A stretch of 64,000 nt of DNA from Candidatus Methylomirabilia bacterium (GTDB taxonomy: Bacteria; Methylomirabilota; Methylomirabilia; Rokubacteriales; CSP1-6): NCBI GenBank assembly GCA_041499965.1, contig JBGQLG010000003.1, forward strand, positions 15,896 to 79,895, in the 5' to 3' direction. Numbering within the stretch: position 1 is the stretch's first letter; every line of letters begins with the position of its first letter. The position numbers and the translations under genes are program-made. The notes beneath the pieces are model-generated. The model was not told the origin of the DNA and made no database searches. It worked only from the letters and a program-made list of their open reading frames with translations. Below are positions 8 through 57,594 of this stretch, one piece after another.

Positions 8-23
8 TGGCAGGGCTGTTGCT
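8..23 (+). promoter_or_regulatory. sigma54 -24/-12 promoter for HAD-LOG operon
   Basis: TGGCAGGGCTGTTGCT (GG-N10-GC); GTG start at 37 lies 15 nt after the -12 C. Confidence 0.75.
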
Positions 24-36
24 CCGTGTCGCATCC

Positions 37-1758
37 GTGGTCCGTTTCCAGGCGCTCGCGCTCGACTACGACGGCACGCTGGTCTCACACGATCACCTCA
101 CCGACGCCACCGTCGCCGCGCTGGAGCGCGCCCGCCGGGCGGGGTTGCAGCTCATCCTGATCACCGGGCGCACCTTCTTCGAGCTCTCACGCGTGTGCCG
201 CCGCCTCGACCTGTTCGACGTCGTGGTCGCCGAGAACGGCGCCGTCCTGCACTATCCGGCCGAGGACGCCATCCGGGACGAGGGGCCGTCACCGCCGCCG
301 AGGCTGATCGCCGCGCTGGACCGGCAGGCGATTCCCTTCCAGGTCGGCCGCGTGATCGTGGCGACCGGCCACAGCTATGAGGGGCAGGTGCGCCGGATCA
401 TGGCGGAGCTGGGGGTCGAGCTCGAGCTCGTGCGCAACCGGGCCGCGCTGATGCTGCTGCCGCCCGGCGTATCGAAGGGGAGCGGGCTCAAGCACGCGCT
501 GCAGCGGTTGGGACTCTCGTTCCATGACGTCCTGGCCATCGGCGACGCCGAGAACGATCTGGAGATGTTCGCGACCTGCGGTTTCGCCGCCTGCCCAGCC
601 AGCGCGGTCGCCGAGGTGACGCAGGTCGCCGACTGGGTGTTCGCCGGGGAGGGTGGCGAGGCGGTCACCCGCGCCATCGACGGCCCCATCCTGGACGGTT
701 CGCTGTCGCCGCCGCGCTCGGGTCGGGAGCGGATCAAGCTCGGCTGGGCCCGGACCACCACCAAGCCGGTGACCATTCCCGCCCAGGGCGTGAACGTGCT
801 GGTGCACGGCGACTCGCTGTCCGGCAAGTCCTGGCTGGCCGGCGGCTTCGTCGAGCGCCTCGTCGCCGCCCGCTACGCGACGTGTGTCATCGATCCCGAA
901 GGGGACCATCAGGCGCTCGCCGACGTGCGGGGCATCACGTGGTGCGAGATCCGCACCACCGAGGACTGGGACGCCGCGCTCGCCGCCTTCGAGCGCAATC
1001 CGGCCGCCAGCGTGGTCGCGGATCTATCGTCCATGCCGGTCGATCGCCAGCTCGGGCTCGTACGCCACGGGCTCACCCTCTTGCGGAGGCTGCGCGCCCT
1101 GCGCGGGCTGCCGCACTGGATCGTGCTCGACGAGGCGCACTACGCGTTGCACGAGGCCGGCGTACCGGATGACGCCGTCGGTCTCGACGCCAAGGGCTTC
1201 TGTCTCGTCACCTATCGACCGAGCGGCCTGCGGGCCTCGGTGCTCGACGCGATCGACCTGTTCGTGTTCGGACGCACCACGGCCGCCGCCGAGCTGGCGT
1301 TCCTCCGGGCGCTCCTGGAGCGGCGCGGGCGGTGCGCGGCGAGCGTGCTCGACACGCTGCCGGAGCTCACGCCTCCCGACTATCTGCTGGCGGCCGACTG
1401 CGGCGGCGTCGGCTTCGTGGCGCCCCCACGCGCGACCCGCCACGTCCGTCATCTCGGCAAGTACGTTGATCACCCGGTGGCGCCGCCGGAGGCGTTCGTC
1501 TTCCGGCGCGGCGATGGTCGATTCACGGCCGAGGCCAACACGCTGCGGTCGTTCCTGGGCTGTCTGCGGGAGGTCGACGACCACGTGCTCCTCCATCACG
1601 CCTCGCGCGGCGACTTCTCTCGCTGGGTCGCCGACGTGTTTCTCGATCGGCAGCTCGCCAACCAGCTCCGCAAGGCCGAGCGGCGGTCGGGGAAGGATGA
1701 TGGGGCGCTCCTGCGAGCATCCCTCACCGGTCTGGTGGCCGGGCTCATCGAGCCGTGA
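37..1758 (+). CDS. HAD-family (Cof-like) hydrolase fused to a P-loop ATPase-like domain and a C-terminal DUF5752-like domain
   Basis: ALDYDGTL, LITGR, AENG, SKG, IGDAENDLEM HAD motifs; GDSLSGKS, IDPEGD, VLDEAH; C-terminal HHASRGDFSRWV; start moved to GTG 37 because of the promoter. Confidence 0.85.
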   Translation: MVRFQALALDYDGTLVSHDHLTDATVAALERARRAGLQLILITGRTFFELSRVCRRLDLFDVVVAENGAVLHYPAEDAIRDEGPSPPPRLIAALDRQAIPFQVGRVIVATGHSYEGQVRRIMAELGVELELVRNRAALMLLPPGVSKGSGLKHALQRLGLSFHDVLAIGDAENDLEMFATCGFAACPASAVAEVTQVADWVFAGEGGEAVTRAIDGPILDGSLSPPRSGRERIKLGWARTTTKPVTIPAQGVNVLVHGDSLSGKSWLAGGFVERLVAARYATCVIDPEGDHQALADVRGITWCEIRTTEDWDAALAAFERNPAASVVADLSSMPVDRQLGLVRHGLTLLRRLRALRGLPHWIVLDEAHYALHEAGVPDDAVGLDAKGFCLVTYRPSGLRASVLDAIDLFVFGRTTAAAELAFLRALLERRGRCAASVLDTLPELTPPDYLLAADCGGVGFVAPPRATRHVRHLGKYVDHPVAPPEAFVFRRGDGRFTAEANTLRSFLGCLREVDDHVLLHHASRGDFSRWVADVFLDRQLANQLRKAERRSGKDDGALLRASLTGLVAGLIEP

Positions 1759-2495
1759 GGCACGAGTGGGGCCGGGTGCCCGGTCCCGTCGAGGTGAGGC
1801 GCTTCCTGGAAGGCCCCCAGCCGCGGAGGTCCGAGCTCCGGCTGGCCCTGGGCATCTTCACGGAGTTCATTCGCGGCTTCCGGTCGTTGCACTTCGTGGG
1901 GCCCTGCGTGACCGTGTTCGGGTCGGCGCGCTTCAAGGAAGACCACCCCTACTACGCGATGGCGCGCGCGATCGGCCACGGCCTCGCCGAGCTCGGCTTC
2001 ACGGTCGTCACCGGAGGCGGGCCCGGCATCATGGAGGCAGCCAACCGCGGCGCCCGCGAGGCGCGCGGCCGCTCGATTGGCTGCAACATCGAGCTGCCGG
2101 CGGAGCAAACGCCCAATCCGTACCTGGACCGCTGGATCACGTTCCGCCACTTCTTCGTGCGCAAGGTCATGCTGGTGAAGTATTCGTACGCATTCGTGGC
2201 GCTACCGGGCGGCTTCGGCACGCTCGACGAGATCTTCGAGACCGCCACGCTGATCCAGACGGGCAAGATCGAGGACTTTCCGCTCGTCCTGGTGGGACGC
2301 GACTTCTGGCGCCCGCTCACCGACTTCCTGCACGGCCCGCTGGAGCGGATGGGACTGATCGATCCCCGGGACGCCGACCGGATCATCGTCGCGGATTCGG
2401 CGACGGAGGCGGTGGAGGCCGTGCGCACCATCGCCGTCCCGAGCTTCGGCCTGCGCTATCGGCAGCCGCGCCGCCGGTGGCTGCTGAACGAATGA
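1755..2495 (+). CDS. LOG-family (TIGR00730-type) Rossmann-fold protein
   Basis: VTVFGSAR, TGGGPGIMEAANRGA, FFVRKVML, PGGFGTLDE; GTGA overlap with upstream stop. Confidence 0.92.
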   Translation: MRHEWGRVPGPVEVRRFLEGPQPRRSELRLALGIFTEFIRGFRSLHFVGPCVTVFGSARFKEDHPYYAMARAIGHGLAELGFTVVTGGGPGIMEAANRGAREARGRSIGCNIELPAEQTPNPYLDRWITFRHFFVRKVMLVKYSYAFVALPGGFGTLDEIFETATLIQTGKIEDFPLVLVGRDFWRPLTDFLHGPLERMGLIDPRDADRIIVADSATEAVEAVRTIAVPSFGLRYRQPRRRWLLNE

Positions 2496-2518
2496 CCGGG
2501 CCGAGCTCGCGAATCCGC

Positions 2519-2593
2519 CTACGTCGCCGGCCGCATCCGCTCAGCGTACTTGATCATGATCTCGCCCATCGCGTTCATCATCTCGCCCCGCAT
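2519..2593 (-). pseudogene. Met-rich C-terminal remnant or micro-ORF (MRGEMMNAMGEIMIKYAERMRPAT)
   Basis: Coding-like codon usage and amphipathic Met-rich helix, no clear 5' part. Confidence 0.3.
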
Positions 2594-2633: not shown

Positions 2634-4253
2634 TCATCCGAGCTCCGGCTCGCTCCCCGTCTCTCTCCTGGCCTCGGGCAGCTGGACCATCGTGGCCTCG
2701 GTCAAGAGGAGCAGGCTGGCCACCGACACTGCGTTCTCGAGCGCCACGCGAACGACCTTCGTCGGATCGATGATGCCGGCCTCGACGAGGTCCACCCACT
2801 GCTTGCGGCCGGCGTCGAACCCGAGCGCGCCGGTGCCCTCGCGCATGCGGGCAACGATGACGCCGCCGTCGACGGCGGAGTTCTCGGCGATCTGGCGGGT
2901 CGGCGCTTCCAGGGCACGCCGGAGGATCTGCAGGCCCGTCCGCTCGTCGCCCTCGGTCTTCGCCTCTTCGCGCTCGACCGCCTCGATGGCGCGTAGCAAC
3001 GCCAGCCCGCCGCCTGGCACGATCCCCTCGGCCACGGCCGCCTTGGTGGCGTTGATCGCGTCCTCGAGCGCCTCCTTGCGGCTCTTCATCTCGGTCTCCG
3101 ACGGGGCGCCGACCCGGATGACGGCGACGCCGCCCGACAGCTTGGCCAGCCGCTCCTCGAGCTTCTCCCGGTCGTAGTCACTGGTCGTCTTCGTGATCTG
3201 CTGGCGGATCTGCTGCTTGCGCCCCTCGATGGCGGCCTTGCTGCCGTGGCCGCTGATGATGGTCGTGTTGTCTTTGTCCACCACCACGCGGCCGGCCCGC
3301 CCGAGCTGGCTGGCCTGGACGTTCTCGAGCTTGGTCCCGGTCTCCTCGCTCAGCACCTCGCCGCCGACCAGCACCGCGATGTCGGCCAGCATCTCCTTGC
3401 GGCGGTCGCCGAAGCCGGGCGCCTTCACCGCGATGCAGCGCAGCGACCCGCGGAGCTTGTTGACGACCAGCGTGGCCAGCGCCTCACCCTCGACGTCCTC
3501 GGCGATGATCACCAGGGCCTCGCCCGCCCGCGCGATCTGCTCCAGCAGCGGCAGGAGGTCCTTCATGATCGTCAGCTTGCGGTCGGTGACCAGCACCCGG
3601 GCATTCTCGAGGACGGCTTCCATCTTCTCCGGGTCGGTGACGAAGTAGGGGGAGAGGTAGCCGCGGTCGAACTGCAGACCCTCCACCACCTCGAGCTGGG
3701 TCTCCGTCGTCTTCGACTCCTCCAGCGTGATGACACCCTCGTCGCCGACCTTCTCCATGGCGTCGGCGATCAGCTCACCGATAGCGGTGTCGTTGTGGGC
3801 CGAGATCGCCGCGACCTGCGCCTTCTCCAGCCGGCTCTTCACCGGACGCGACAGCTCGCGCAGTCGCTCGACGGCCACCCGCGTGCCGCGGTCGAGGCCC
3901 CGCTTGAGGTCGACGGCGCTCGCCCCGGCCACCACGTTCTTGACTCCCTCGGCGAAGATCGCCTGGGCCAGGATGGTCGCCGTCGAGGTGCCGTCGCCCA
4001 CGGCGTCGCCGGTCCGCTCGGCCGCCTGCCGGATCGTCTGCGCGCCGAGGTTCTCGGTCGGATCTTCGAGGTTCGTCTCCTTGGCGATGGTGACGCCGTC
4101 GTTGCACACGAGCGGCGCCCCGAACTTCCGCTCGATGAGCACGCACTTCGATCGGGGGCCGAGCGTCACCCGCACCGCATCGGCAACGGCGTTCACGCCA
4201 CGGAGAATTTTCTCTCTCGCCTGCGACCGGAACATGACCTGCGTGTGGCTCAT
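2634..4253 (-). CDS. groEL: Chaperonin GroEL (no adjacent groES)
   Basis: [53 protein letters not shown]; ATG 4253 with GGGAGG RBS; 539 aa. Confidence 0.97.
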
Positions 4254-4293
4254 CGTCGCCTCCCTCGGGACGTTTCGACCGAGCCAGTGAAGG

Positions 4294-4309
4294 TGCAGTG
4301 CGGATGCCA
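4294..4309 (-). promoter_or_regulatory. sigma54 promoter for groEL
   Basis: TGGCATCCGCACTGCA; AAT-N8-TT at 4325-4337; palindrome CGGGGC-N6-GCCTCG at 4361-4378. Confidence 0.8.
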
Positions 4310-4529
4310 CGCGCGAAGTCCAGGAATCCGCGAGCTTACTGTCGGGGGTTGCGCCGGCACCGGGGCGTTGGCGCCTCGCCTCGCGCTCCCGTGCCTCAGA
4401 CCGCCGAGATCGCGACAGCCAAGGCGAACGGGACGTCCGGGGGTGGAGCGGACGGCCCCGAGCCCAGAGCGCGGCTCGGGCCACGAGTCGACCGATCCGG
4501 TCAGTGTCGCGATGCCGTCGAGGACCTCG

Positions 4530-4808
4530 TCATCGCCCCGCCGGCGCGACCGGATCCCGCGGGACGCTCTTCCAGATCGCGCCGAGGACACGCCCGCTCA
4601 CGTAGCCCACGGTCGCGGTCACCACGACGAGCGCGACGGCCCGGGCAGGCGCGAAGGGCCCGACCTGGTAGGGCGGGGTGATGAAGTGCAGCCAGAAGAT
4701 GAAGTCGATCACCGGCTGCGCCCACTGCGCGAGCACCAGCAGCGACCACAGCAGATGCCAGCCGCCGACAAAGAGCGCCAGCACGATCCCGAGCTTGTGG
4801 GAACTCAT
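4530..4808 (-). CDS. Small membrane protein (92 aa)
   Basis: Two hydrophobic helices, [11 protein letters not shown]...FIFWLHFI; GGAGG RBS. Confidence 0.75.
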
Positions 4809-4943
4809 CCGTTTTCCTCCGGTCGCCAGCGGCTGCCCGACGCCCGCTCCACGGTGCTGCCCGTTGGCTGGCAGGCGGTCGCACGCGCGGGCGTGGGCTC
4901 GAGGAAGGGTAATCGCCGGCCCGGATCTTCGGCGACGATCGCG

Positions 4944-5240
4944 CTACGATCGCGTGAACCGCGGCGACCGGGCCACGACCAGCAGACACCCCTTGCGGCA
5001 CAGGGCGACGCCCGGCGTGCCGAGCACCGAGCAGCAGGTGACGTCGACGAACCGGCGCGTCCACTCGTCCCGCGCGAGCTCGGCGGTGGCCGGCTGCCGG
5101 ATCAGCGAACAGTGGACGCCGGTGGTCACGGGCTGCATGGCGCGCGGGAAGAGGCGTAGCACCCCCAGCACGAGCACGGTCGCGGTCGTGGAGACCACGA
5201 GGACGAGCAGTGCGCCTTCGAGCGTCGTCAGCGAGTACAT
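4944..5240 (-). CDS. Membrane-anchored Cys-rich small protein
   Basis: N-terminal TM then VHC...VDVTCCS...CRKGCL; follows the TraR/DksA gene in the operon. Confidence 0.7.
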   Translation of the reverse strand: MYSLTTLEGALLVLVVSTTATVLVLGVLRLFPRAMQPVTTGVHCSLIRQPATAELARDEWTRRFVDVTCCSVLGTPGVALCRKGCLLVVARSPRFTRS

Positions 5241-5259
5241 GGGCTTTCCCCCCGCGGCG

Positions 5260-5631
5260 TCAGTGCGCCGCTTCGGCCCGGGCTTGGCAGGTCGCACACC
5301 GGCGGGCCGTCGGCACCGCCCGCAGGCGGGTCAGCGGGATCGCGCGATGGCAGCTCTCGCACACGCCGAACACGCCGGCCTCGAGCCGGCGCTGCGCGGC
5401 GTCGATCTCGTCCATCTCGTGCCGCTCGCGACCCTCGAGCCGGGCCAGGAGGTCACCGATGGCACCGGTCGCTGCGCCCTCGCCGAATTCGCTCGGCTGC
5501 TGCGATTCGAGCGTCGCCAGCTCGTCGTCGGTGGTGGCGACGGTACGCGCCAGGCTCCAGCGCATCGCGGCCAGGCGCTGGCGAAACTCCGCGGTCACGC
5601 GCGGCCGTTTCCTGCGTGTCGACGTCGTCAT
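5260..5631 (-). CDS. TraR/DksA C4 zinc-finger protein
   Basis: Coiled-coil followed by FGVCESCHRAIPLTRLRAVPTARRCATCQ; GGAG RBS. Confidence 0.92.
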   Translation of the reverse strand: MTTSTRRKRPRVTAEFRQRLAAMRWSLARTVATTDDELATLESQQPSEFGEGAATGAIGDLLARLEGRERHEMDEIDAAQRRLEAGVFGVCESCHRAIPLTRLRAVPTARRCATCQARAEAAH

Positions 5632-5687
5632 GTCATCGCTCCTCCCGCCGGGTCAGCCTCGTGGCGCCCGAGCTGTCTCGATCTTGG

Positions 5688-5703
5688 TGCACTGCGGGTG
5701 CCA
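5688..5703 (-). promoter_or_regulatory. sigma54 promoter for TraR/DksA operon
   Basis: TGGCACCCGCAGTGCA; AAT-N8-TT at 5719-5731. Confidence 0.8.
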
Positions 5704-5754
5704 TCCCGGAGGTGGCGAAATTCAGGGACTTACGCGACGGGGGGAGGTCCACGG

Positions 5755-5792
5755 CGGGGCGCCGGCGCCCCGCGCGGGACTCGGTCGCCACG
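5755..5792. promoter_or_regulatory. Tandem palindromic enhancer-like sites
   Basis: CGGGGC-GCCGGC-GCCCCG cg CGGGAC-TCGGTC-GCCACG. Confidence 0.65.
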
Positions 5793-5795
5793 CGG

Positions 5796-6017: not shown

Positions 6018-6246
6018 GGGTTGCTCCTGGGGCACGCCGTGGACATGAGGCAACACGGCGTGGGGATCGGAGTAGATGACCCACGTGGGCTCGAGCCAGC
6101 CCCGGGGCGCGGTACGGGCGTCGTGGACCTCGGCGGCCCACTCGAGGTCACGCTCGAGGCTCGACGCGATGAATGCCCGGATCCCGTCGCAGAGACCGGG
6201 ACCGGGCCAGCGGCAAGGTCCTTCGATCCGGCGTCGAACCGGGCGT

Positions 6247-6792: not shown

Positions 6793-6806
6793 CGCCGCGT
6801 CCCCGC

Positions 6807-7373: not shown

Positions 7374-7392
7374 CTGCGACCTCCTCGTGGGG

Positions 7393-8436: not shown

Positions 8437-8452
8437 TGCAAGGCGACTGCCA
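8437..8452 (-). promoter_or_regulatory. sigma54 promoter for hsp20-CBS operon
   Basis: TGGCAGTCGCCTTGCA; AAA-N8-TT at 8468-8480. Confidence 0.82.
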
Positions 8453-8755: not shown

Positions 8756-8771
8756 TGCAAGGCTTCGGCCA
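8756..8771 (-). promoter_or_regulatory. sigma54 promoter (divergent pair with pfkB promoter)
   Basis: TGGCCGAAGCCTTGCA; shared palindrome TGAGGC-GCGTCC-GCCTCG at 8812-8829. Confidence 0.7.
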
Positions 8772-8890: not shown

Positions 8891-8906
8891 CGGCACCCGA
8901 CTTGCC
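8891..8906 (+). promoter_or_regulatory. sigma54 promoter for pfkB
   Basis: CGGCACCCGACTTGCC; AA-N8-TTT at 8863-8875. Confidence 0.75.
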
Positions 8907-14146: not shown

Positions 14147-14162
14147 TGCACTGAGCCTGCCA
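14147..14162 (-). promoter_or_regulatory. sigma54 promoter for htrA-ppsA-CBS
   Basis: TGGCAGGCTCAGTGCA; ATG 14134 is 14 nt after the -12 C. Confidence 0.78.
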
Positions 14163-14215: not shown

Positions 14216-14253
14216 TGTCCCGGTGGCGCCCCAGGTGGGGCATCGGCTCGCCG
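14216..14253. promoter_or_regulatory. Tandem palindromic sites between divergent promoters
   Basis: TGTCCC-GGTGGC-GCCCCA gg TGGGGC-ATCGGC-TCGCCG. Confidence 0.55.
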
Positions 14254-14304: not shown

Positions 14305-14320
14305 TGGCAGTGAGGTTGCA
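14305..14320 (+). promoter_or_regulatory. sigma54 promoter for archease-rtcB
   Basis: TGGCAGTGAGGTTGCA; ATG 14334 is 15 nt after the -12 C. Confidence 0.83.
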
Positions 14321-19952: not shown

Positions 19953-19968
19953 CGCAACTCGAATGCCA
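19953..19968 (-). promoter_or_regulatory. sigma54 promoter for IMPase-kinase::pcm-mat
   Basis: TGGCATTCGAGTTGCG; AAA-N8-TT at 19984-19996; TGGGGC-GCCTGC-GCCACA at 20019-20036. Confidence 0.82.
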
Positions 19969-20093: not shown

Positions 20094-21557
20094 GTGACCG
20101 TGACCACTGAGCCCGCTGCAGCTGAGCCCGCTCCGGCGACATCGACGGTTCTCTGGCGGGTGATCGTGCCGCTTGTGCTCGGCGCGAGCATCGTGGTGCT
20201 CCCGCCGCCCGCCGGCCTGACGCCCACCGCGTGGCACTTCTTCGCGTTGTTCGTGACGACGATCGCGGCCCTGGTCACCGAGCCGATCCCCGGCCCTGTG
20301 GTCGGCCTGCTGGGGGTGACGCTGGCGGCGCTGCTCGGCCTCGTGGCCCGCGACCCCGCCGCCTCGATTCGATGGGCGCTCACGGGCTTCTCGGACAGCA
20401 CCGTGTGGCTGATGTTCGTCGTGCTCATGCTCGCGCTCGGATATCAGAAGACGGGGCTCGGCCACCGGATCGCCCTCACGCTGGTCGAGCGTCTCGGCCG
20501 CCGGACACTCGGGCTCGGGTACGCGGTCGCGCTCGCTGACCTTGTCCTGGCGCCCCTCACGCCGTCCAACACGGCACGCGCCGGCGGCATCCTGTTCCCG
20601 ATCATCCGGGCGATCCCGGCGCTCTACGGCTCGTCGCCCGGCCAGACGGCCCGCGGGATAGGCGCCTATCTGATGTGGACGTCGTTCGCGGCGATGTGCG
20701 TCACGAGCTCGCTGTTCCTGACCGCGCTCGCGCCCAATCTGCTCGCCCAGGCGATGCTGAAGGACATCGCGCGCGTGAACGTCACGTGGGTCGAGTGGTT
20801 CGTCGGATTCCTGCCGGTCGGGCTCGTGCTGTTCGGTCTGGCGCCGCTGCTGGTGTACTGGATCTATCCGCCGACCCTGACCGCCAGCGCCGAGGTTCCG
20901 CGGTGGGCCCGGGCCGAGCTCGAGCGGCTCGGCGGTATCAAGCGCAGCGAGGTCGTGATGGCGCTGCTGGTCGCCCTCGCGCTGGCCTTGTGGATCCTGG
21001 GCAGCCGCTGGGTGAGCCCGACCACGGCCGCGCTCCTCGTGTTCTGCCTGATGCTCGTCACGGGCATCGTCGACTGGGACGATGTCCTCGGAGCCCGGCA
21101 GGCCTGGAACGCCCTCGTGTGGTTCGCCACCCTCGTGACCCTCGCCGATGGACTGAACCGGGTCGGGTTCCTCGGGTGGTTCGCGGCAGGCACGGTCGGC
21201 GCCCTCGCGCCGCTGCCCGTCGTCGCCCGGATGGTCGCCATCGTCCTGGCATTCTTCGTGGCCCACTACATGTTCGCGAGCCTCACCGCGCACACGACGG
21301 CGCTGCTGCCGGCGTTCCTCGCCGTGGTCGCGGCCAGCCCCGATCTTCCGCGGCGGCCGCTGTCGCTCCTGCTCTGCTACACGCTCGGCCTCATGGGTGT
21401 CCTCACCCCGTACGCCACCGGCTCGGCTCCGATCTACTACGCGAGCGGGTACGTCACTCGCCGGGAGTTCTGGAGGCTCGGCGCGATCTTCGGTGCGCTC
21501 TACCTGGCCGTTCTCGTGGGCCTCGGGCTTCCTTACCTCGTGGCGCTGACCCCGTAG
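20094..21557 (+). CDS. DASS-family anion/dicarboxylate transporter
   Basis: Multi-TM; PAGLTPTAW, KTGLGHRIAL, TPSNTARAGGI, SSLFLTALAPN, TPYATGSAPIYY. Confidence 0.93.
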   Translation: MTVTTEPAAAEPAPATSTVLWRVIVPLVLGASIVVLPPPAGLTPTAWHFFALFVTTIAALVTEPIPGPVVGLLGVTLAALLGLVARDPAASIRWALTGFSDSTVWLMFVVLMLALGYQKTGLGHRIALTLVERLGRRTLGLGYAVALADLVLAPLTPSNTARAGGILFPIIRAIPALYGSSPGQTARGIGAYLMWTSFAAMCVTSSLFLTALAPNLLAQAMLKDIARVNVTWVEWFVGFLPVGLVLFGLAPLLVYWIYPPTLTASAEVPRWARAELERLGGIKRSEVVMALLVALALALWILGSRWVSPTTAALLVFCLMLVTGIVDWDDVLGARQAWNALVWFATLVTLADGLNRVGFLGWFAAGTVGALAPLPVVARMVAIVLAFFVAHYMFASLTAHTTALLPAFLAVVAASPDLPRRPLSLLLCYTLGLMGVLTPYATGSAPIYYASGYVTRREFWRLGAIFGALYLAVLVGLGLPYLVALTP

Positions 21558-22628: not shown

Positions 22629-22644
22629 TGCATGGCCGATGCCC
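22629..22644 (-). promoter_or_regulatory. sigma54 promoter for AIRS-like gene
   Basis: GGGCATCGGCCATGCA; GTG 22615 is 15 nt after the -12 C. Confidence 0.65.
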
Positions 22645-22728: not shown

Positions 22729-22766
22729 CGAGAAGGCGCTGCCCCATGTGGGGTATCACTGTCCCA
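22729..22766. promoter_or_regulatory. Tandem palindromic sites between divergent promoters
   Basis: CGAGAA-GGCGCT-GCCCCA tg TGGGGT-ATCACT-GTCCCA. Confidence 0.6.
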
Positions 22767-22872: not shown

Positions 22873-22888
22873 TGGCATCCGCGATGCA
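22873..22888 (+). promoter_or_regulatory. sigma54 promoter for baeRF-carS
   Basis: TGGCATCCGCGATGCA. Confidence 0.72.
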
Positions 22889-24744: not shown

Positions 24745-24782
24745 TGGGGCGCCGGTGCCCCATCTGGGGCAGCCGTGATCGG
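24745..24782. promoter_or_regulatory. Tandem palindromic enhancer-like sites
   Basis: TGGGGC-GCCGGT-GCCCCA tc TGGGGC-AGCCGT-GATCGG. Confidence 0.7.
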
Positions 24783-24836: not shown

Positions 24837-24852
24837 TGGCAACGCGGATGCA
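24837..24852 (+). promoter_or_regulatory. sigma54 promoter for BON'-USP-nrdJ
   Basis: TGGCAACGCGGATGCA. Confidence 0.75.
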
Positions 24853-28071: not shown

Positions 28072-28087
28072 TGCAAGCGACCCGCCA
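28072..28087 (-). promoter_or_regulatory. sigma54 promoter for CBS gene
   Basis: TGGCGGGTCGCTTGCA; tandem sites TGCGGA-N6-GCCTCA tc TGGGGC-N6-GGGACA at 28150-28187. Confidence 0.75.
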
Positions 28088-28256
28088 GGTCGGGGTACGC
28101 GAGACTGCGCGAATTCGCGTACGTTCGCGGCACGTGGTGGGTGGTGGTCTGCGGACGCTGCGCCTCATCTGGGGCGAGCCTGGGACACGGCGCGCCTCAC
28201 GCCCCTCGCCGGCCCTTGAGCGCCTGGACATCGAGGATCGCGAGCAACCTGGTCGA

Positions 28257-30533: not shown

Positions 30534-30549
30534 TGCATCAGCGATGCCG
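30534..30549 (-). promoter_or_regulatory. sigma54 promoter for small Cys protein and acyl-CoA ligase
   Basis: CGGCATCGCTGATGCA; tandem sites CGAGGC-N6-TTCCCA tg TGTCCC-N6-GCCCCA at 30600-30637. Confidence 0.68.
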
Positions 30550-31006: not shown

Positions 31007-34883
<3,877 letters not shown>

Positions 34884-35059: not shown

Positions 35060-35097
35060 TGGGGCAGCGGCGCCTCACGTGAGGCGCTCACGCTCCG
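35060..35097. promoter_or_regulatory. Tandem palindromic enhancer-like sites
   Basis: TGGGGC-AGCGGC-GCCTCA cg TGAGGC-GCTCAC-GCTCCG. Confidence 0.7.
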
Positions 35098-35150: not shown

Positions 35151-35166
35151 TGGCAACACCGATGCA
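35151..35166 (+). promoter_or_regulatory. sigma54 promoter for BON-USP-USP
   Basis: TGGCAACACCGATGCA; AACTCCGAGATT at 35122-35133. Confidence 0.77.
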
Positions 35167-38046: not shown

Positions 38047-38062
38047 TGGCAGTGTCATTGCA
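38047..38062 (+). promoter_or_regulatory. sigma54 promoter for pal operon
   Basis: TGGCAGTGTCATTGCA; AA-N8-AAT at 38019-38031; TGCGGT-N6-GCCCCA g TGGGGA at 37979-38003. Confidence 0.82.
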
Positions 38063-43556: not shown

Positions 43557-43572
43557 TGCAACGGCACTGCCG
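43557..43572 (-). promoter_or_regulatory. sigma54 promoter for adaptor-ftsH
   Basis: CGGCAGTGCCGTTGCA; AAA-N8-TT at 43588-43600. Confidence 0.8.
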
Positions 43573-43625: not shown

Positions 43626-43662
43626 TGGGGCGCCCGTGCGGCGCTGGGGTGACGATGCCCCA
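43626..43662. promoter_or_regulatory. Tandem palindromic sites between divergent promoters
   Basis: TGGGGC-GCCCGT-GCGGCG c TGGGGT-GACGAT-GCCCCA. Confidence 0.68.
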
Positions 43663-43704: not shown

Positions 43705-43720
43705 CGGCACGCCGGTTGCC
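43705..43720 (+). promoter_or_regulatory. sigma54 promoter for ABC ATPase-permease-MFS
   Basis: CGGCACGCCGGTTGCC; ATG 43734 is 15 nt after the -12 C. Confidence 0.78.
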
Positions 43721-53600: not shown

Positions 53601-56089
53601 GTGCCGCCGAGCATCGAGGCGATCCGCGCTGCGGAGGTCCACTCGAGCAGGCGGCGTTTCCGGCGCAGGCGGACGAGCGTGCGCAGGATGGCATCGGCCA
53701 GGACGGCCGCGCGATGCGGCAGGAAAGCGACGTGCAGGATCCAGAGCGCCGAGGCGGGTCGGAGCCGGAGCCAGACACCGCGGATGGCGGCAGGCAAGGC
53801 CGCCACCCGGTGGGCCGACACGAGACCCCCCATCGCCTCGCTGAGCAGCGGCGTCGCCAGCGGGAGGACGCCCAGCGCAGTCCAGATGACGGGCCAGCCG
53901 GGGAACAACGCCCACGCGAGGAGCAGGAAGGCGAGCAGCGTGGGAGGAAGCAGCGTGCGCCGCAGGTTGTCGACGATCTTCCAGCGCGAGATCAGCGACA
54001 GCCGGTTTGGCCCCCGGCCACCGCCCGCCAGGGGCACGCGGCGGCCGAGCCAGGGCAACAGTTGCCAGTCTCCGCGCGCCCAGCGGTGCAAGCGCCGCCA
54101 GTATCGGCGATAGTCGACTGGATAGTCCTCGAAGAGCACGACGTCGCTCACCAGGCCGGCTCTGCCGTGGATGCCCTCGAACAGGTCGTGGCTGAGCAGC
54201 GTGTTGTCGGGCACGCGTCCCTGCAGGCTGCGCTCGAACGCGACCGGGTCGTAGATTCCCTTGCCGACGTAGATCCCTTCACCGAACAGATCCTGGTAGA
54301 CGTCCGAGGTCGCGCCGGCGTAGAGGTCGAGGCCCGGGTCTCCCGCGAAGAGGCGGGTGAACCGCGACGCGGCGGCGCCCAGGGGGGTCACCTCGACCCG
54401 GGGTTGCAGGACCGTATAGCCGGCACTGACGCGGCCGGTGAGGGGATCGAACTCCGCCCGGTTGAGCGGGTGGGCGAGGGTGGCGACGAGGCGATGCGCG
54501 GCGCCCCGAGGAAGCTCGGTATCGGCGTCGAGCGTGAGCACGAACCGAATGGAAGGCAGGATGCGCGGATCACCCACGTGGCCGGCGAAGGTGGTCGTCT
54601 GATCTCCGGCCAGCAGGCGGTTGAACTCGGCGAGCTGGCCTCGCTTGCGCTCCCATCCCATCCAGCAGCCCTCGCTGGGGTTCCACAGTCGCTTGCGATG
54701 CCGCAGATGAAACGGTCCGGTGTCTGTCCCCCCGTATCGCGCATTGAGCGCACGAACGCCCTCCTCGGCGCGCCGGAGCAGGTCGGCGTCGTCCGGCATC
54801 GATTCGGCGGGCGCGTCGGCCAGGGTGACCAGCAGCGCGAGATGGAGGTTCGCGTCCGCGTTGGCCAGCCAGTGGACCTCGAGCCGGGACACGATCGCCG
54901 CGACGTCGTCACGCGAAGCCAGGAGCACCGGCACGGCCGCCATGGTCCGGCAGTCGGCGGGGATGCCCTTGCGGAAGTCCATCTTGGGCAGGACACGCGC
55001 GGGCAAGAGGCGGGTCGTGAGGAGGTTGACGAGACTGACGCCGATCGTCGTGGCCGGGACGACGGCGAGCGCCATGCCCGACGCGGCGACGGCGAGGCTG
55101 GCGCCGGCCATGAGCAGTGCCACGCCCAGCCCTGTCACATGTAGCGCGGCGACCAGGAGGATGGCTCCGAGGTACCAGGGGGTCGGATGACGCTCGAGCC
55201 CCCGCCGCCATCGGGTACGCCAGCGGGAACGATACACGACGATCCGTTCGAGGCCGACGACGCCCTGGCCGATGAGGTGGTCGCCGACATGGCGGCTCCG
55301 ATCTCCGGTACTCTCCCCGGACAAGCGGATGGCCTCGCGCGCCACCGCGTCCTCCGACCAACCGCTCCGGGCGGCCAGGTCCTCGACGACACCGCGGTAG
55401 CGATCACGCGTATCGAAATCCATGCTCGGGTAGACGCCCGCGGGATCCTCACGCAGGATCCGCTCGGTCTCGCTGACCTGTTCGAAGACGGCGTTCCAGT
55501 CGGTCGTCTCCAGCGTGCGCAGACTGCGGATGCATGCGGGCAGGGTCTGGTCGGCCGGCGGCTGCCCCGGCAGGCCTTCTGCCTGGAATGCGCTGATGGT
55601 GGCGGCCGCCAGGGACTCGAGGAGAACGATGCGGAGCAGCACGGGCAGCGCCCACACCTCGGCGATGGTGAGTGGCCGTCGCGTCTGGAAGTCGGCGACG
55701 AGGAGCGTGATCTGCTCGACTTCGACGTGATGCCCGCCGGCCGTGACGATCTCCCGGGCCAGCTCGTAGGCCACCGGGTGCCCGCGCAGCTCCCCGTCGG
55801 CCAGACGAGGAAGCCGCCCCTCGAACACAGGCGGGAACTCCTCGCGAACCAGCTGGAAGGCTCGTTCGACGATGTAGTAGTTGTCGAGCAGCCATTCCGC
55901 GGCCGGGTGGTCCGACCCAGGGCCCCCCGCGGCGAGTCGGCGAGACGTCGTGGCGAGAGTCTGCTCGGGGCCTCGCAAGCGGTCCACAAGGTGTGGAGCT
56001 CGACGCCGGGCCGGCAGCGGCGCCGTACTCGCCAGGCGTCGAACCCGTTCGCGCACGTCACCGGCACTCACGACCAGGCCAGGAATCAC
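47633..56089 (-). CDS. ndvB: Cyclic beta-1,2-glucan synthase (GT84 + GH94 domains), 2818 aa
   Basis: AEWLLDNYY, WMGWERKRG, TLDADT, LSHDLFEG, RWARGDWQ, YDLLASEARL, YQSSGAFGFRDQLQD, GDWNDGMN, PPGVRENGGQYTH. Confidence 0.93.
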   Translation of the reverse strand: MIPGLVVSAGDVRERVRRLASTAPLPARRRAPHLVDRLRGPEQTLATTSRRLAAGGPGSDHPAAEWLLDNYYIVERAFQLVREEFPPVFEGRLPRLADGELRGHPVAYELAREIVTAGGHHVEVEQITLLVADFQTRRPLTIAEVWALPVLLRIVLLESLAAATISAFQAEGLPGQPPADQTLPACIRSLRTLETTDWNAVFEQVSETERILREDPAGVYPSMDFDTRDRYRGVVEDLAARSGWSEDAVAREAIRLSGESTGDRSRHVGDHLIGQGVVGLERIVVYRSRWRTRWRRGLERHPTPWYLGAILLVAALHVTGLGVALLMAGASLAVAASGMALAVVPATTIGVSLVNLLTTRLLPARVLPKMDFRKGIPADCRTMAAVPVLLASRDDVAAIVSRLEVHWLANADANLHLALLVTLADAPAESMPDDADLLRRAEEGVRALNARYGGTDTGPFHLRHRKRLWNPSEGCWMGWERKRGQLAEFNRLLAGDQTTTFAGHVGDPRILPSIRFVLTLDADTELPRGAAHRLVATLAHPLNRAEFDPLTGRVSAGYTVLQPRVEVTPLGAAASRFTRLFAGDPGLDLYAGATSDVYQDLFGEGIYVGKGIYDPVAFERSLQGRVPDNTLLSHDLFEGIHGRAGLVSDVVLFEDYPVDYRRYWRRLHRWARGDWQLLPWLGRRVPLAGGGRGPNRLSLISRWKIVDNLRRTLLPPTLLAFLLLAWALFPGWPVIWTALGVLPLATPLLSEAMGGLVSAHRVAALPAAIRGVWLRLRPASALWILHVAFLPHRAAVLADAILRTLVRLRRKRRLLEWTSAARIASMLGGTSSRRPLWREMAAAPLAALGTGALLAISRPAALPAALGVLLLWLLAPEIADIVGRAWPDRPPAPGQGQARRLRLLARRTWLFFDTFVGPENQWLPPDHFQEEPRGEIARRTSPTNIGFLQLATLSAHDLGHAGLLSVVQRLGNTIDTLERMERHRGHFYNWYDTADLTPLLPRYVSTVDSGNLAASLLTVKQGCLELVHAPIIGPAGWDGLLDTLDILGEVIDGRVRRQDRARFAGLRACVARARQEAAALKGQRRAWAPGIARLLEQGCAEFDRTLLSAIAPGREDLDQDLLAELRVWSAEVRQHLGAMRRDIELYLPWQVPGASAPLVLNGEVRDEFERCLSLDPTLHGLPSACESASAAVTRLAKQLDTLPVDAAGMAGVRAWAAGLREAIGRAEDAARTVLTSLAGLAGRTDALFDAMDFTFLYDESRRLFYIGQDVATDRPDAHHYDLLASEARLASFVAIAKGDVPEEHWLHLGRPFCRVDGGSALLSWSGTMFEYLMPTLLLREAPESLMGRACASAVRIQIAYAGRRGVPWGMSESGYYRFDDHRNYQYRAFGVPDLGFKRGLEDDVVVAPYACLLALPFAPEAVMANLGRLEHLGLMGRYGLYEAVDFTASRLAEGTHHAIVRSFMAHHQGMILVAVDNLLCGHPMVRRFHADPVVQTTEALAFERPATAAPLRRTRLVPEGPRRTAAPRRAPLEPWPARPDAGFPQAHVLSNGRYQTLVSDGGGASSWGAVALTRQQADRTLAAPGFRLFVREPARRLAWSLAPGEGETTFHAHMVETHRRVHGVSLRQQVCVAPADDAEVRLVTVRNQTAFRRRLEVTSYAEVVVGDAAEDRRHPAFSKLFVESEYLEDLHALIFHRRPRSGGGPDAWLAHLLVLPAGRARPAGYETARERFVGRGRTTRRPAALDGAGPLGAGMTGATLDPIMALSAEVELPGHRATSLGFVMLAASSREGVLALARRYRSLPALEWSFELARRRSEIEAADLELAPHDLPAAATLLSLLLCSHDALRASAATLALNHLGQRSLWKHAISGDLPILLVRIGSAEDAAILPSVLRAQRFWRGRGVCVDVVILNERAGGYVAEMDEPVERALVQAGAEASRDRLGGVFVIHAARIDGADRTLLLSAARVVLDGSQGSIGQHLARLAGEPARLPLLAPSSPPPTEAPETLPRPDTLLFDLGLGGFAADGREYIIHLEPGQSTPAPWVNVVANRRLGFVVTESGGGYTWAENSGENRLTPWRNDPISDEPGEVLYLRDEATGAVWSPTPRPAPADGAYQVAYGAGYARFLHRSHGLEQSVRLWVAPDDPVKLVELALTNRLDRPRTVTVTYYVEWVLGTSREQSQAFVVPEFDPASEALLARNAWSEDFAARVAFVAVSAKLRGLTADRLEFLGRHGGYATPAALRRIGLAGTVRAGRDPCAALQISLDLAPGATVHAHFMLGQAAGRDEALDLVTKYRDRAVVEAAWTELNRQWDARLGAVTVRTPDPALDLMLNRWLLYQLLASRFWGRTGFYQSSGAFGFRDQLQDVAALIHGLPALCRDHILEAARHQFEAGDVLHWWHPPAGAGVRTRCSDDLLWLPFVTAHYVEATGDATILEEAIPFLAGEPLEPDEVERYARFEPGPHRATLYTHCLAAIDRGRTAGAHGLPLFGSGDWNDGMNRVGAGRRGESVWLGWFLHATLTRFGRVAARLGDSARAETLRGQAEELRAALEATAWDGAWYRRGYYDDGTPLGSAERAECQIDSVAQSWAVLSSAAEKSRAAAAMEAVMRRLVKEPDGLILLLAPPFAESTDDPGYIRGYPPGVRENGGQYTHAAIWVLWALLELGDVEHAVDLFQRLLPIRRALTPEAAALYRTEPYVLASDVYAAPPWSGRGGWTWYTGAAAWAYRLGLEKILGMRPSEGGWHLEPHIPAAWPGFEVVWHDGATIVRIQVDNPRGVSSGVERMLLDGERLDPPILPRLTDGRIHEVQVTMGSRQNER

Positions 56090-56094
56090 CGGGC

Positions 56095-57132
56095 TCAGTG
56101 GCCCGGACGGCTCCGCGCCGCCATTTCGGCGCGCGTCGGCCCCCGCGCGCCCAGGCCGAGGTCCTGCAGCACGAGGATCGGCCGGGTGCTTTCGGCCAGG
56201 AGGCGGGCGCTGACACTGCCGTAGCGCTCACTCGCATCGGCCGTACGGCCGTGGGCGCATACCACGATCAGATCGACGTCGGCCCCCTCCGCCAGCGCCC
56301 GAATCGCCGGCGCCCGCCGGGACGATACGACGCTTTGCACGCTGACGCGAAGCGCCTGGCCAGCCAGCCCACTCTGCAGCTCACGCAGGTACCGCTCGGC
56401 TTCCACCCGGTTGCGCTCGGTGAGCTGCGAGGCGACGGCCACGTCGTCCGCGGACGGTGGCATGCGCCGAGGCATCTCCGGCTCGGGCACCACGTGGGCG
56501 AGGATCAACTCGGCGTCATGCGCGCGCGCCAGAGCGACGGCGAGTGTGAGGACGGACTCGGCCCGTGGCGAGCAATCCAGGGGCACGAAGATTCGGCGCA
56601 AACGAATCTCGCCGACGGGCCGTTCATCGGCGGTGTGCGCGGGGACGACGAGGACCGAGCTGTCGGCGCGGGCCACGACTTTCTGGGCGGTACTGCTCAG
56701 GACCCAGCCGCTGAGCCCGCCTTCACCGTGGGTCGACAGGACGACGAGATCGACGTCGTGTCCCCTGGCGAAATTGATGATCTGTTCGGCGGGCCGGCCC
56801 TCCAGCAACTCGGCGGCCGAGGTCAATCCATCCGCCTTCAGTTCGCCATCCAGCTTTGCGAGCTGGCTGTGCGCCTCCGCCCGCCGGATCTGCCACTCCA
56901 CGGCGTCGTGAGCGTGGCGCGGCGAGGCCGCGGTGACCGGTGGCTCGAGGATACGGAGGAGCGTGATGCGCGCAGCGAACACCCGTGCCAGGGCAACGGC
57001 CCACGGAAGCGCGCACTCTGCGAGCGCCGACCCATCCAGCGGCACCAGCAGGTGCTCGATGGTCAGCTCTGGGCACCCGATTTCATGCTCGCCGCCGGGC
57101 GGTCCAACCGCGGATGGTCTACTGGATCGCAT
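56095..57132 (-). CDS. Tandem-domain universal stress protein
   Basis: LLVPLDGS, LVVLSTHG, IFVPLDCS, LIVVCAHGRT, YGSVS; GGAGG RBS. Confidence 0.93.
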   Translation of the reverse strand: MRSSRPSAVGPPGGEHEIGCPELTIEHLLVPLDGSALAECALPWAVALARVFAARITLLRILEPPVTAASPRHAHDAVEWQIRRAEAHSQLAKLDGELKADGLTSAAELLEGRPAEQIINFARGHDVDLVVLSTHGEGGLSGWVLSSTAQKVVARADSSVLVVPAHTADERPVGEIRLRRIFVPLDCSPRAESVLTLAVALARAHDAELILAHVVPEPEMPRRMPPSADDVAVASQLTERNRVEAERYLRELQSGLAGQALRVSVQSVVSSRRAPAIRALAEGADVDLIVVCAHGRTADASERYGSVSARLLAESTRPILVLQDLGLGARGPTRAEMAARSRPGH

Positions 57133-57264
57133 GGCCGATCCCTCCCCCCCGTCGTGTCGGGTGTGCAGCTCACCGCCGGCGGCACCTTCGTTACGGCAGG
57201 GGCCTGAGGAGACGTTCCCTTCTAGGGGAACCTCCGATTTGCGAAGCGATGTCAGAACTGTGAC

Positions 57265-57280
57265 TGCAACGTGCGCGCCA
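57265..57280 (-). promoter_or_regulatory. sigma54 promoter for USP-glucan synthase
   Basis: TGGCGCGCACGTTGCA; TGGGGC-N6-GGGGCA a TGAGGC-N6-GCCGCC at 57333-57369. Confidence 0.77.
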
Positions 57281-57578
57281 GGACTTTCCCGTGCGTTTCG
57301 TGCCGAACCCGCGACATGGAAGCCCAGCGAAGTGGGGCGCCGGAGGGGCAATGAGGCGGAGACGCCGCCCCGTTCCCTGTCTTGACTGCGGCGTGGTCGC
57401 GAGGATCGGCCGGGCAGCCGCCATCGCGATGCGCTACGCGAGCTCCAGCAGCGCGAGGGCGGGTTTCCGTCGGCGCTCGAGCACCGGCACGTGGCATTGC
57501 TGCACCACCTGTCGCATCGATGTCCCACGCTCTCCCTCGGTTCCGGGCGCAAGTTGTGGGATTCGCTGGCGTGGGACT

Positions 57579-57594
57579 CGGCACCGTCGTTGCT
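57579..57594 (+). promoter_or_regulatory. sigma54 promoter for HPF-like gene
   Basis: CGGCACCGTCGTTGCT; AA-N8-ATT at 57551-57563; tandem sites at 57490-57527; ATG 57607 is 14 nt after the -12 C. Confidence 0.8.

Follow-up and report, generated by a model that had tools for sequence, protein, structure and literature searches.

The stretch of DNA analyzed here, hereafter the window, comprises 64,000 nt of contig JBGQLG010000003.1 (C3, positions 15896-79895) of Candidatus Methylomirabilia bacterium (Rokubacteriales; CSP1-6; assembly GCA_041499965.1, 5.8 Mb in 329 contigs). According to our own gene calls and a Pfam search, it holds 53 genes in 22 units, 20 of which are headed by a sequence resembling the -24/-12 promoters of sigma-54. 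An earlier, sequence-only reading of the window had listed 21 such sites ahead of almost every unit and proposed a single, physically clustered sigma-54 regulon. Here, we report a computational analysis that bears out the core of this proposal: within the window, a motif model trained outside the locus finds its strong matches exclusively between genes and facing gene starts, the promoters share an upstream enhancer-like element, the core motif is kept in a relative, and rpoN is present in the genome. On these grounds, a real, physically clustered sigma-54 regulon appears highly probable.

Gene content of the locus

The genes of the window were assigned by Pfam and NCBIfam searches. They encode a GroEL copy, a DksA-type protein, HSP20 together with three CBS proteins, further CBS proteins and HtrA. 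Others encode archease and RtcB, an APS-kinase/PCMT fusion, PolX, an NAD-dependent DNA ligase, FtsH with HlyD, and a LonB-like protease, and still others a HAD hydrolase, a LOG-family protein, a PfkB kinase, PEP synthase, inositol monophosphatase, an AIR-synthase-like protein, an acyl-CoA synthetase, a Pyridox_ox_2 protein and a Glu/Leu dehydrogenase. The transporters are a MacB-type ABC system, an MFS protein and a DASS protein. Universal stress protein (USP) and BON-domain genes occur as a BON and a USP gene with a B12-dependent ribonucleotide reductase (NrdJ_Z, above its NCBIfam cut-off), as a BON gene with two USP genes, and as a tandem USP; the whole cluster contains at least 13 USP genes. 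One protein matches a ribosome hibernation factor family weakly, below the cut-off (22.6 versus 23.7 bits). Thus, several USPs, alpha-crystallin (HSP20), CBS and BON proteins, the B12-dependent ribonucleotide reductase and the PfkB kinase, a set of the low-oxygen or dormancy type, are all present.

Because the genome has other copies elsewhere, the GroEL, LigA and S-adenosylmethionine (SAM) synthetase of the cluster are extra copies: there are three Cpn60 (GroEL) genes and two LigA genes, and a bacterial MetK is encoded elsewhere beside the archaeal-type SAM synthetase found here.

A -24/-12 motif restricted to intergenic DNA

The evidence cited for the sites by the sequence-only reading was the pattern GG-N10-GC. 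The coordinates and strands of all 21 sites proved correct, and all 21 have the invariant GG and GC exactly 10 nt apart, but the pattern itself is uninformative at the 71% G+C of the window and had to be abandoned as evidence: it matches 1699 times, against a mean of 1697.6 in 100 shuffles, and its genome-wide density is 28.0 per kb in intergenic versus 28.2 per kb in coding DNA. TGGCAC-N5-TTGC with up to three mismatches likewise occurs at chance frequency (480 matches in the window versus 494 in shuffles). The information lies in a richer motif, TGGCA-N7-TGC(AC), that is present at all 21 sites, most of which read TGGCA-N7-TGCAC. When every GG-N10-GC was scored at the 11 specified positions of TGGCAC-N5-TTGCW, 19 of the 21 sites matched at least nine positions, a level reached by 234 intergenic sites genome-wide (19 in the window); at least ten positions are matched by 102 sites in the genome, 88 of them intergenic.

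We then scored the genome with a position weight matrix (PWM) of 22 columns, trained, to avoid circularity, on 75 intergenic sites outside C3 and outside two contigs, C262 and C197, that align beside C3 in a relative. Genes for this purpose were called with our own codon-bias model (5290 genes, 91% coding); intergenic DNA makes up 9.1% of the genome, and the window holds 1.8% of it. The 21 listed sites score 8.6-20.0 bits, and 18 pass the cut-off of 10 bits, the three below it being 30534(-) at about 10.0, 24837(+) at 8.7 and 22629(-) at 8.6 bits. Every one of the 18 intergenic matches in the window at or above the cut-off is among the listed sites, and the best coding match there reaches 9.1 bits, with none at 10 bits or more. 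The proposed excess over background is borne out by this measure: intergenic density is 1.93 per kb in the window and 0.347 per kb elsewhere in the genome, with 0.057 per kb in coding DNA, and at least 18 sites given 3.2 expected corresponds to a Poisson P of 1e-8. Intergenic and total genomic DNA do not differ in base composition, so the enrichment is not due to composition. The richest 64-kb span contains 21 matches on C3 and eight on the next-best contig; as few contigs reach 64 kb, the comparison of 20-kb spans is fairer, and there C3 has ten matches versus five on any other contig.

Orientation and spacing agree with a promoter function. All 21 listed sites are intergenic and face a gene start, and the 18 matches above the cut-off show the predicted strand bias, with 14 in divergent gaps and four in co-directional gaps on the gene strand; none of the 18 lies on the strand opposite to the genes and none in a convergent gap. 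As a control for spacing, intergenic GGCA-Nx-TGCA was counted at all spacings from N3 to N15: N7 gives 40 copies, and every other spacing gives 8-14. The two units set apart by the sequence-only reading behave as it described: the interval 19959-22635, which includes the DNA upstream of the DASS gene, contains no match that reaches 6 bits, and a 15.3-bit site for the Lon-type unit lies just beyond the edge of the window, at 64771-64786(-). The HSP20 unit has two sites.

Two further marks were tried and dropped. Coding DNA seemed to avoid the motif (GGCA-N7-TGCA 32 times versus about 220 at most other spacings), but the same-phase spacings N4, N10 and N13 give 37-56, so there is no strong depletion. 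TGCAC at -12 is a tendency of the cluster and not a marker of it: of the 51 intergenic places with GGC.-N7-TGCAC, the window accounts for 14, and about 20 good copies are found outside it.

The motif as a probable sigma-54 element

As the sequence-only reading had expected, rpoN is encoded outside the window: the genome has one PF04552 match (206 bits), in a 593-aa open frame on contig C2. It also has 26 strong matches to PF00158, the sigma-54 interaction domain of enhancer-binding proteins (EBPs). Genome-wide, co-directional gaps contain 85 PWM matches of at least 10 bits on the gene strand versus 16 on the opposite strand, and convergent gaps contain only 12. Of the 153 matches that score 12 bits or higher, 22 have an EBP gene within 5 kb, versus 6.3 expected (P = 4e-7), and 14 of the 26 EBP genes have such a match nearby. 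The matrix thus behaves like a sigma-54 matrix genome-wide, since its matches sit near EBP genes and point toward genes. We infer that the units of the cluster probably depend on sigma-54.

The sites of the cluster differ in base preference from the other sites of the genome, with C following TGGCA in 36% versus 87% and A following GC in 56% versus 29%. In addition, a few cores are nearly palindromic (GGCA-N7-TGCC) and match on both strands, namely 8891/8898, 43705/43712 and -254/-253 (the C3 15641-15643 region); the two that lie in divergent gaps of the window (8891-8907 and 43705-43721) could serve either direction.

A putative bend element and a shared candidate enhancer

The 26 sites of C3 (21 in the window and five beyond) were aligned on the GG. 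Upstream of the core lies an A/T-rich element in fixed register, with AA at -29/-28 and TT at -18/-17 from the GG, that often resembles the reversed IHF consensus. It was rejected as a marker of the cluster, as a weaker form is also found at the other sigma-54 promoters of the genome; we read it as a presumably general IHF-like bending site. The genome has five genes of the HU/IHF family.

Farther upstream, 50-110 nt from the GG, the half-sites GCCCCA/TGGGGC or GCCTCA/TGAGGC are repeated. GCCCCA/TGGGGC occurs in 17 of the 25 C3 upstream regions covered by this count (19 of the 25 being in the window) versus 11 of 165 other sigma-54 upstream regions (Fisher P = 1.9e-11), and with the GCCTCA/TGAGGC variants included, 21 of the 25 carry a half-site. 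Between genes, the perfect palindrome GCCYCA-N2-TGRGGC occurs just four times genome-wide, each time within the window (14228, 24757, 28162 and 35072). Its slightly wider form, inverted GCCYCA-N2-TGRGGY, occurs five times in the genome, always intergenic and always on contigs of the cluster, and the everted form with N6 ten times, eight intergenic and six on those contigs; other gaps between half-sites gave no comparable pattern. The arrangements vary from promoter to promoter: inverted with N1 or N2, everted with N6, both together, or single half-sites. A single strict 14-nt palindrome was given up as a description of the enhancer, because it covers only a minority of the promoters, and a half-site in two arrangements fits better.

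A different repeat, CCCCA-N8-TGGGG, is present 62 times in the genome, 57 of them intergenic, and its N7 form 21 times, 18 intergenic, with 2-7 copies at neighboring spacings and none on C3; it looks like a dispersed hairpin-forming (REP-like) repeat or a common form of terminator.

Extent of the cluster and conservation in relatives

The cluster fills C3, which is 81 kb long and has 26 sites. The 15.9 kb to the left of the window encode six USPs, a heme-copper oxidase, a cytochrome c, acetate kinase, an ADP-forming acetyl-CoA synthetase, a CBS protein, a stand-alone receiver and a PAS histidine kinase, and contain four more sites. For a contiguous view, we used a relative of the same genus, G001, with a contig of 1.84 Mb, 320 kb of which were compared. 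C262, C197 and C3 align on it side by side, at 548-558, 558-579 and 579-692 kb. The physical clustering over more than 60 kb claimed by the sequence-only reading thus stands, with its extent revised upward: by synteny with G001, the cluster spans at least about 125 kb. In G001, 549-674 kb contains 41 intergenic sites among 105 genes, 26 of the sites with half-sites, and the flanks (195 kb) contain 14 sites among 209 genes, two with half-sites.

Ten promoter regions could be aligned with G001 without gaps, and in these, identity at the core positions is 79/80 versus 107/140 at other positions (P = 1e-6). Sites with half-sites are also present in more distant Rokubacteria, at loci near homologues of the baeRF protein (47-49% identical). 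The term 'island' for horizontally acquired DNA has no support from G+C content (0.715 for C3 versus 0.712 genome-wide).

Two observations concern genes of the wider cluster. C197 (L003) carries, at 2779-7524, divergent genes for AMP-binding enzymes, one fused to a carrier domain and an acyltransferase, with an enhancer of the type found in the window and two sigma-54 sites; this pair points to lipid or storage-compound remodelling in the same regulon. The CBS gene pair of the HSP20 unit (6229-7486) has a second, 91%-identical copy in the G001 cluster (G001:C1:572867-574124), which suggests a recent duplication within the cluster.

A candidate activator and a candidate sensor

C3 itself contains no EBP gene, and the sequence-only reading had placed the activator elsewhere. 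It does lie outside the window, but a candidate adjoins the edge of the cluster, so that 'elsewhere' is probably not apt. C262 encodes a 467-aa regulator with the Pfam domains Response_reg (REC), Sigma54_activat, AAA_lid_14 and HTH_8, and with GAFTGA and Walker A motifs in its translation; no NCBIfam equivalog matches it at the cut-off, the best being AtoC (462 versus 714 bits). The gene is flanked by USP genes that stand behind promoters of the type found in the window. Its orthologue in G001 (90% identical; G001:C1:549156-550559) is the one EBP gene at the edge of the cluster in this contiguous relative, where it forms the left border and is followed by a promoter of the same type. A search of 20 relatives from across the order gave orthologues at E <= 1e-150 in 17 of them. 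Of the 18 orthologue loci, 13 have a site that scores 10 bits or more on the strand of the gene, no farther than 700 nt past it, nine of them with half-sites; two of the five negative loci offered fewer than 300 bases to scan. The position of the gene at the cluster edge in G001 and the promoter of the same type that follows it at 13 of 18 loci support the predicted binding of the shared enhancer by its product, and we judge the case for this gene as the activator of the cluster to be evenly balanced.

A candidate for the input lies on C3 at 5370-6617. The PAS domain of this histidine kinase matches the heme domains of FixL (E 4e-18 to 1e-14) and DosP (about 1e-11), and it keeps a histidine aligned with the proximal heme ligand of FixL.

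A proposed regulon and its alternatives

The explanation that we regard as likely, judging from these sequence features, combines a three-part promoter, one switch and a survival programme. Each promoter would consist of a -24/-12 core, an IHF-like element and a half-site enhancer 50-110 nt upstream of the GG, and divergent units would use one common enhancer. Sigma-54 holoenzyme would sit closed on each core until the NtrC-type regulator encoded on C262, once phosphorylated, binds the enhancers and, by looping over the bent DNA, opens all of the promoters at once, so that about 50 genes of the window, and about 100 of the whole cluster, would switch as a block. The input would probably come from the FixL-like heme-PAS histidine kinase encoded in the cluster. 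The output would be a survival programme for oxygen or energy limitation, with USPs, HSP20, CBS and BON proteins, the ribonucleotide reductase, acetate kinase and, possibly, the weakly matched ribosome hibernation factor, accompanied by a second GroEL, DNA ligase and SAM synthetase, by further FtsH- and Lon-type proteases, and by PolX, RtcB and PCMT. Control of all units by a single regulator is a part of this explanation that we favor with some reserve; an oxygen or redox signal is a more tentative part, which may well prove wrong.

Several observations weigh against this explanation or parts of it. For 11 of the 26 promoter regions of C3, no alignment with G001 extends through the core. Weak cores are found at two of the 21 sites (8.6 and 8.7 bits); the least secure of all is 22629(-), at which the aligned sites of relatives score only 1.5-6.4 bits, and at 24837(+) the weak core is accompanied by a clear IHF-like element and, at -81/-73, by a perfect enhancer. 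Four of the 25 sites, 5688(-), 22873(+), 57579(+) and, outside the window, -12229(+), have no exact half-site within -120..-30. In a leave-one-out test, the 14-nt palindrome reaches at least 8 bits at 12 of 29 promoters of the cluster and at least 10 bits at six of 29, versus two of 161 elsewhere at 8 bits. Because some promoters lack the half-site and the palindrome is strong in only a minority, more than one activator may be at work. On the sensory side, the position that corresponds, by alignment count, to the oxygen-reading distal Arg220 of Bradyrhizobium FixL is occupied by Leu, and for this reason we describe the kinase as probably heme-PAS-like and do not file it as a FixL orthologue. 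No histidine kinase adjoins the EBP gene in G001, where the neighbors are ABC transporter genes, and the link between kinase and EBP is a guess, with the stand-alone receiver and 25 other EBPs as rivals. The hypoxia or dormancy reading is a tentative one, drawn from likeness of gene content. Finally, our gene caller missed at least one real gene (DUF4015), which makes 'intergenic' and distances to start codons approximate, and score thresholds were picked after inspection of the data.

Some of these points would fit a mosaic, in which the sigma-54 promoters are real and different EBPs, or added sigma-70 promoters, control different units, with no single block. The 26 EBP genes of the genome and the second receiver protein in the cluster leave room for such an arrangement, as do the varying enhancers (four of 25 C3 sites without an exact half-site, the palindrome at 8 bits in only 12 of 29). 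Against it, the half-site recurs in 17 of 25 C3 promoters, or 21 with variants, and is rare elsewhere (11/165), no EBP gene lies on C3, and only one is found at the cluster edge in G001; we hold a mosaic to be unlikely. A more radical alternative is that TGGCA-N7-TGCAC is read by something else, a dimeric transcription factor or another sigma, and only mimics a -24/-12 promoter. The near-palindromic sites and the deviating base preferences described above would fit such a reader, but the spacing and both dinucleotides are exactly those of sigma-54, rpoN is present, most sites are asymmetric with consistent strand orientation, and a matrix trained on other sites of the genome, themselves enriched near EBP genes and oriented toward genes, gives the sites of the cluster 8.6-20 bits. 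This alternative appears very improbable. The same can be said even more strongly of chance matches picked by eye in 71% G+C DNA: the looser patterns are indeed no more frequent than in shuffled sequence (1699 versus 1698 and 480 versus 494), but the independent PWM, the intergenic restriction, the orientation, the spacing control, the shared enhancer and the cross-genome conservation refute this reading as far as sequence statistics can.

Comparison with known systems

The classical precedent for a sigma-54 gene cluster is nif of Klebsiella, in which several operons of one cluster each have a -24/-12 promoter, with a dyad enhancer for NifA about 100 nt upstream and an IHF site in between. There are about 7-8 promoters over about 24 kb, devoted to one pathway, the activator has a GAF domain, and divergent operons share enhancers. 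The present cluster has the same core, bend and dyad enhancer and, likewise, divergent operons with common enhancers. It differs from nif in the number of sites (21 in 64 kb, 26 on the contig and 41 in the relative), in its cargo of the stress, repair and dormancy type, in the receiver-type candidate activator and in the enhancer sequence.

In gene content, there is a parallel with DosR of Mycobacterium tuberculosis, where a heme sensor kinase and a response regulator turn on, under hypoxia, USPs, alpha-crystallin, CBS proteins, a B12-dependent ribonucleotide reductase, a PfkB kinase and ribosome-silencing factors. DosR is of the LuxR/NarL type and acts at sigma-70-type promoters, and its genes lie in several small clusters; Actinobacteria are not known to have sigma-54. 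The gene sets of the two systems run parallel, but the motifs here are of the sigma-54 type and the cluster is contiguous.

NmpR of Myxococcus xanthus (NmpRSTU) is an NtrC-like response regulator that acts with sigma-54 and recognizes the enhancer GCGCA-N5-TGCGC, with paired dyads within about 100 nt of the promoter. Seven promoters were bound out of 12 scattered candidates. Genes for a USP, a terminal oxidase and a protein with CBS domains are among its targets, there is a heme-dependent kinase upstream, and a response to oxygen limitation was proposed (PMC11841059). The likeness comprises an NtrC-type regulator (a candidate one here), USP, CBS and oxidase genes, and a heme-type kinase; the enhancer here is GCCYCA-N2-TGRGGY instead, and dozens of promoters lie in one locus.

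The lxa cluster of Burkholderia cenocepacia is a co-regulated, low-oxygen cluster of 50 genes with one motif at 17 intergenic points (PMC3721108). It encodes six USPs, alpha-crystallin, 'phospholipid-binding' proteins, a class II ribonucleotide reductase, a PfkB-type kinase, a 'lysine decarboxylase', acetate kinase and transporters, and its FNR/Anr-like motif, TGA-N6-TCA, implies an activator of the CRP/FNR type (PMC3721108). Its content overlaps closely with that of the present cluster, which has a sigma-54 core and GCCYCA/TGRGGY repeats in place of TGA-N6-TCA and additionally contains repair genes and second copies of housekeeping genes that do not figure in the lxa passages. The likeness to DosR and lxa is functional and is not one of membership. 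A last comparison concerns rtcB of Escherichia coli and Salmonella, which has a sigma-54 promoter and a dedicated CARF-domain activator, RtcR, encoded beside the rtcBA operon; here, the archease-rtcB unit is one of about 20 with the enhancer of the cluster, and no rtcR-like gene adjoins it.

Implications

Rokubacteria are abundant, large-genome bacteria of soil and groundwater. We know of no cultured member and of nothing on their gene regulation. Our search found no paper that combines 'Rokubacteria' and 'sigma-54', further literature searches gave nothing on the phylum, and 'Methylomirabil' is absent from a 2025 cross-phylum survey of sigma-54. The mechanism proposed here would be canonical; what is unusual is its scale, its density and its cargo, in a phylum that is unstudied in this respect.

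It is possible, if short of probable, that a complete standby cell state, encoded in at least 100 kb, is driven by one sigma-54 switch, which would consist of about 40 look-alike promoters, an NtrC-type regulator and a heme-PAS kinase. Such a state would combine stress proteins with separately wired second copies of a chaperonin, a DNA ligase and a SAM synthetase, with further FtsH- and Lon-type proteases, PolX, a ribonucleotide reductase, RNA and protein repair and, possibly, a ribosome hibernation factor. It would match the DosR and lxa programmes by convergence, on the basis of sigma-54. About 100 genes would then be held silent until needed by the strict off-state of their promoters, a tight control used for a very large gene block and not for a single pathway, and this would be the densest contiguous sigma-54 regulon described, as far as we are aware. 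For dormancy biology, the recurrence of the DosR/lxa gene set under unrelated control is suggested, which would argue that the set itself is the selected unit. The promoter and enhancer signature defines a testable regulon, names a candidate regulator and a candidate sensor, and predicts genes that rise together in metatranscriptomes when growth stops.

Individual promoters and other features of the window

The sites, the enhancers between them and the units that they precede are given in Table 1.

Table 1. Predicted sigma-54 cores, enhancer elements and units without a core in the window (positions in nt from the start of the window; half-site positions relative to the GG)
Feature	Position	Strand	Score (bits)	Unit and remarks
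Sigma-54 core	8..23	+	18.8	HAD-hydrolase and LOG unit (37-2495); 10/11 consensus; half-sites -73, -61
Sigma-54 core	4294..4309	-	15.0	Extra GroEL copy (2634-4253); half-site -90; aligned G001 site keeps TGGCA..TGCAC
Sigma-54 core	5688..5703	-	14.4	DksA-type zinc-finger unit (4530-5598); no exact half-site -120..-30
Sigma-54 core	8437..8452	-	20.0	HSP20, three-CBS, small open reading frame (ORF) unit (5796-8383); best score in window; kept in G001; half-sites -91, -70
Second sigma-54 core	8756..8771	-	11.5	380 nt upstream of HSP20, back to back with 8891(+)
Sigma-54 core	8891..8906	+	13.5	PfkB kinase gene (8999-9919); GGCA-N7-TGCC, other strand matches too
Sigma-54 core	14147..14162	-	10.2	HtrA, PEP synthase, CBS unit (9883-14134); palindrome 14228-14241 common with 14305(+)
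Enhancer, perfect GCCYCA-N2-TGRGGC palindrome	14228..14241	.		Midway between divergent 14147(-) and 14305(+), about 72 nt from each GG
Sigma-54 core	14305..14320	+	15.6	Archease, RtcB, small-ORF unit (14334-16444); half-sites -78, -70
Sigma-54 core	19953..19968	-	13.2	Inositol monophosphatase, APS-kinase/PCMT fusion, archaeal-type SAM synthetase (16548-19938); core identical in G001
DASS transporter gene, unit without sigma-54 site	20160..21557	+		Pfam Na_sulph_symp
Weak sigma-54 core	22629..22644	-	8.6	AIR-synthase-related gene (21569-about 22600)
Enhancer palindrome, 1 mismatch	22741..22754	.		Between 22629(-) and 22873(+)
Sigma-54 core	22873..22888	+	13.8	baeRF-family-10 and CarS-like unit (22937-24570); kept in relatives G001, L006, L008
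Enhancer, three half-sites TGGGGC-N6-GCCCCA-N2-TGGGGC	24745..24770	.		Perfect inverted copy (24757) and everted N6 copy
Sigma-54 core	24837..24852	+	8.7 (core alone)	BON, USP, B12-dependent ribonucleotide reductase (24958-27553)
Sigma-54 core	28072..28087	-	14.2	CBS gene (27597-28016); perfect enhancer 28162-28175
Enhancer, perfect palindrome	28162..28175	.		Upstream of 28072(-)
Sigma-54 core	30534..30549	-	about 10.0	About 430 nt ahead of acyl-CoA synthetase (28257-30104); identical in G001
Sigma-54 core	34747..34762	-	12.1	PolX, second NAD-dependent DNA ligase, GYD unit (30686-34728); kept in G001
Enhancer, three half-sites TGGGGC-N6-GCCTCA-N2-TGAGGC	35060..35085	.		Includes perfect palindrome at 35072
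Sigma-54 core	35151..35166	+	11.6	BON, USP, USP unit (35253-37260); half-sites -92, -80, -72
Sigma-54 core	38047..38062	+	16.8	OmpA-like, hypothetical, DUF4015 unit (38316-40432)
Sigma-54 core	43557..43572	-	14.4	HlyD-like and FtsH unit (40233-43537); kept in G001
Enhancer, everted TGGGGT-N6-GCCCCA	43645..43662	.		Between divergent 43557(-) and 43705(+)
Sigma-54 core	43705..43720	+	13.0	ABC ATPase, MacB-type permease, MFS unit (43734-47001); kept in G001
Sigma-54 core	57265..57280	-	13.5	Tandem USP and 2784-aa GH94/glycosyltransferase unit (47633-about 57240)
Sigma-54 core	57579..57594	+	16.9	Weak HPF-like, Pyridox_ox_2, hypothetical, Glu/Leu dehydrogenase (57643-61000); G001 16.8 bits
LonB-like protease and HHH_8 (PolX N-terminal-like) unit	61308..64000	-	15.3 (promoter)	Promoter outside window at 64771-64786(-); Pfam

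The second core ahead of HSP20, 8756(-), may be a tandem promoter or the start of an unannotated short transcript; no Pfam-matching ORF lies downstream of it. More generally, three sigma-54 sites are 270-450 nt from the nearest called start (8452-8756(-), 30104-30534(-) and 38062-38316(+)), with no Pfam ORF and no Rfam match in between, and these gaps may reflect long leaders, mis-called starts, small proteins or unannotated RNAs. Scans of the whole window for Rfam families and tRNA genes were negative.

Metatranscriptome contigs at least 90% alike, from four runs of one study, cover the GroEL gene and the dksA and hsp20-CBS units. On the upper side they end at 4231-4249, 5623-5646 and 8388-8408, which is 18-55 nt downstream of the predicted starts; contigs cannot show starts, and none of those listed crosses the GroEL, dksA or hsp20 promoter. 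As such libraries may contain DNA and uncovered stretches prove nothing, these contigs were not counted as evidence.

Three features of the gene complement stand apart from the promoters. The run at 14334-19938 and 22937-24570 has an archaeal or eukaryotic flavor, with archease-RtcB, a SAM synthetase of PF01941, a baeRF family-10 protein resembling release factors and a CDP-archaeol-synthase-like protein. A single frame of 2784 aa at 47633-55987(-) joins a glucoamylase-like domain to two GH94 domains and a weak glycosyltransferase family 2 match below the cut-off (19.8 versus 27 bits), a layout that resembles cyclic beta-1,2-glucan synthases. The open frame of the DUF4015 putative glycosyl hydrolase at 39158-40432(+) (E 1.4e-94) shares about 200 nt with the 3' end of the FtsH gene (40233-42119), which is convergent with it.

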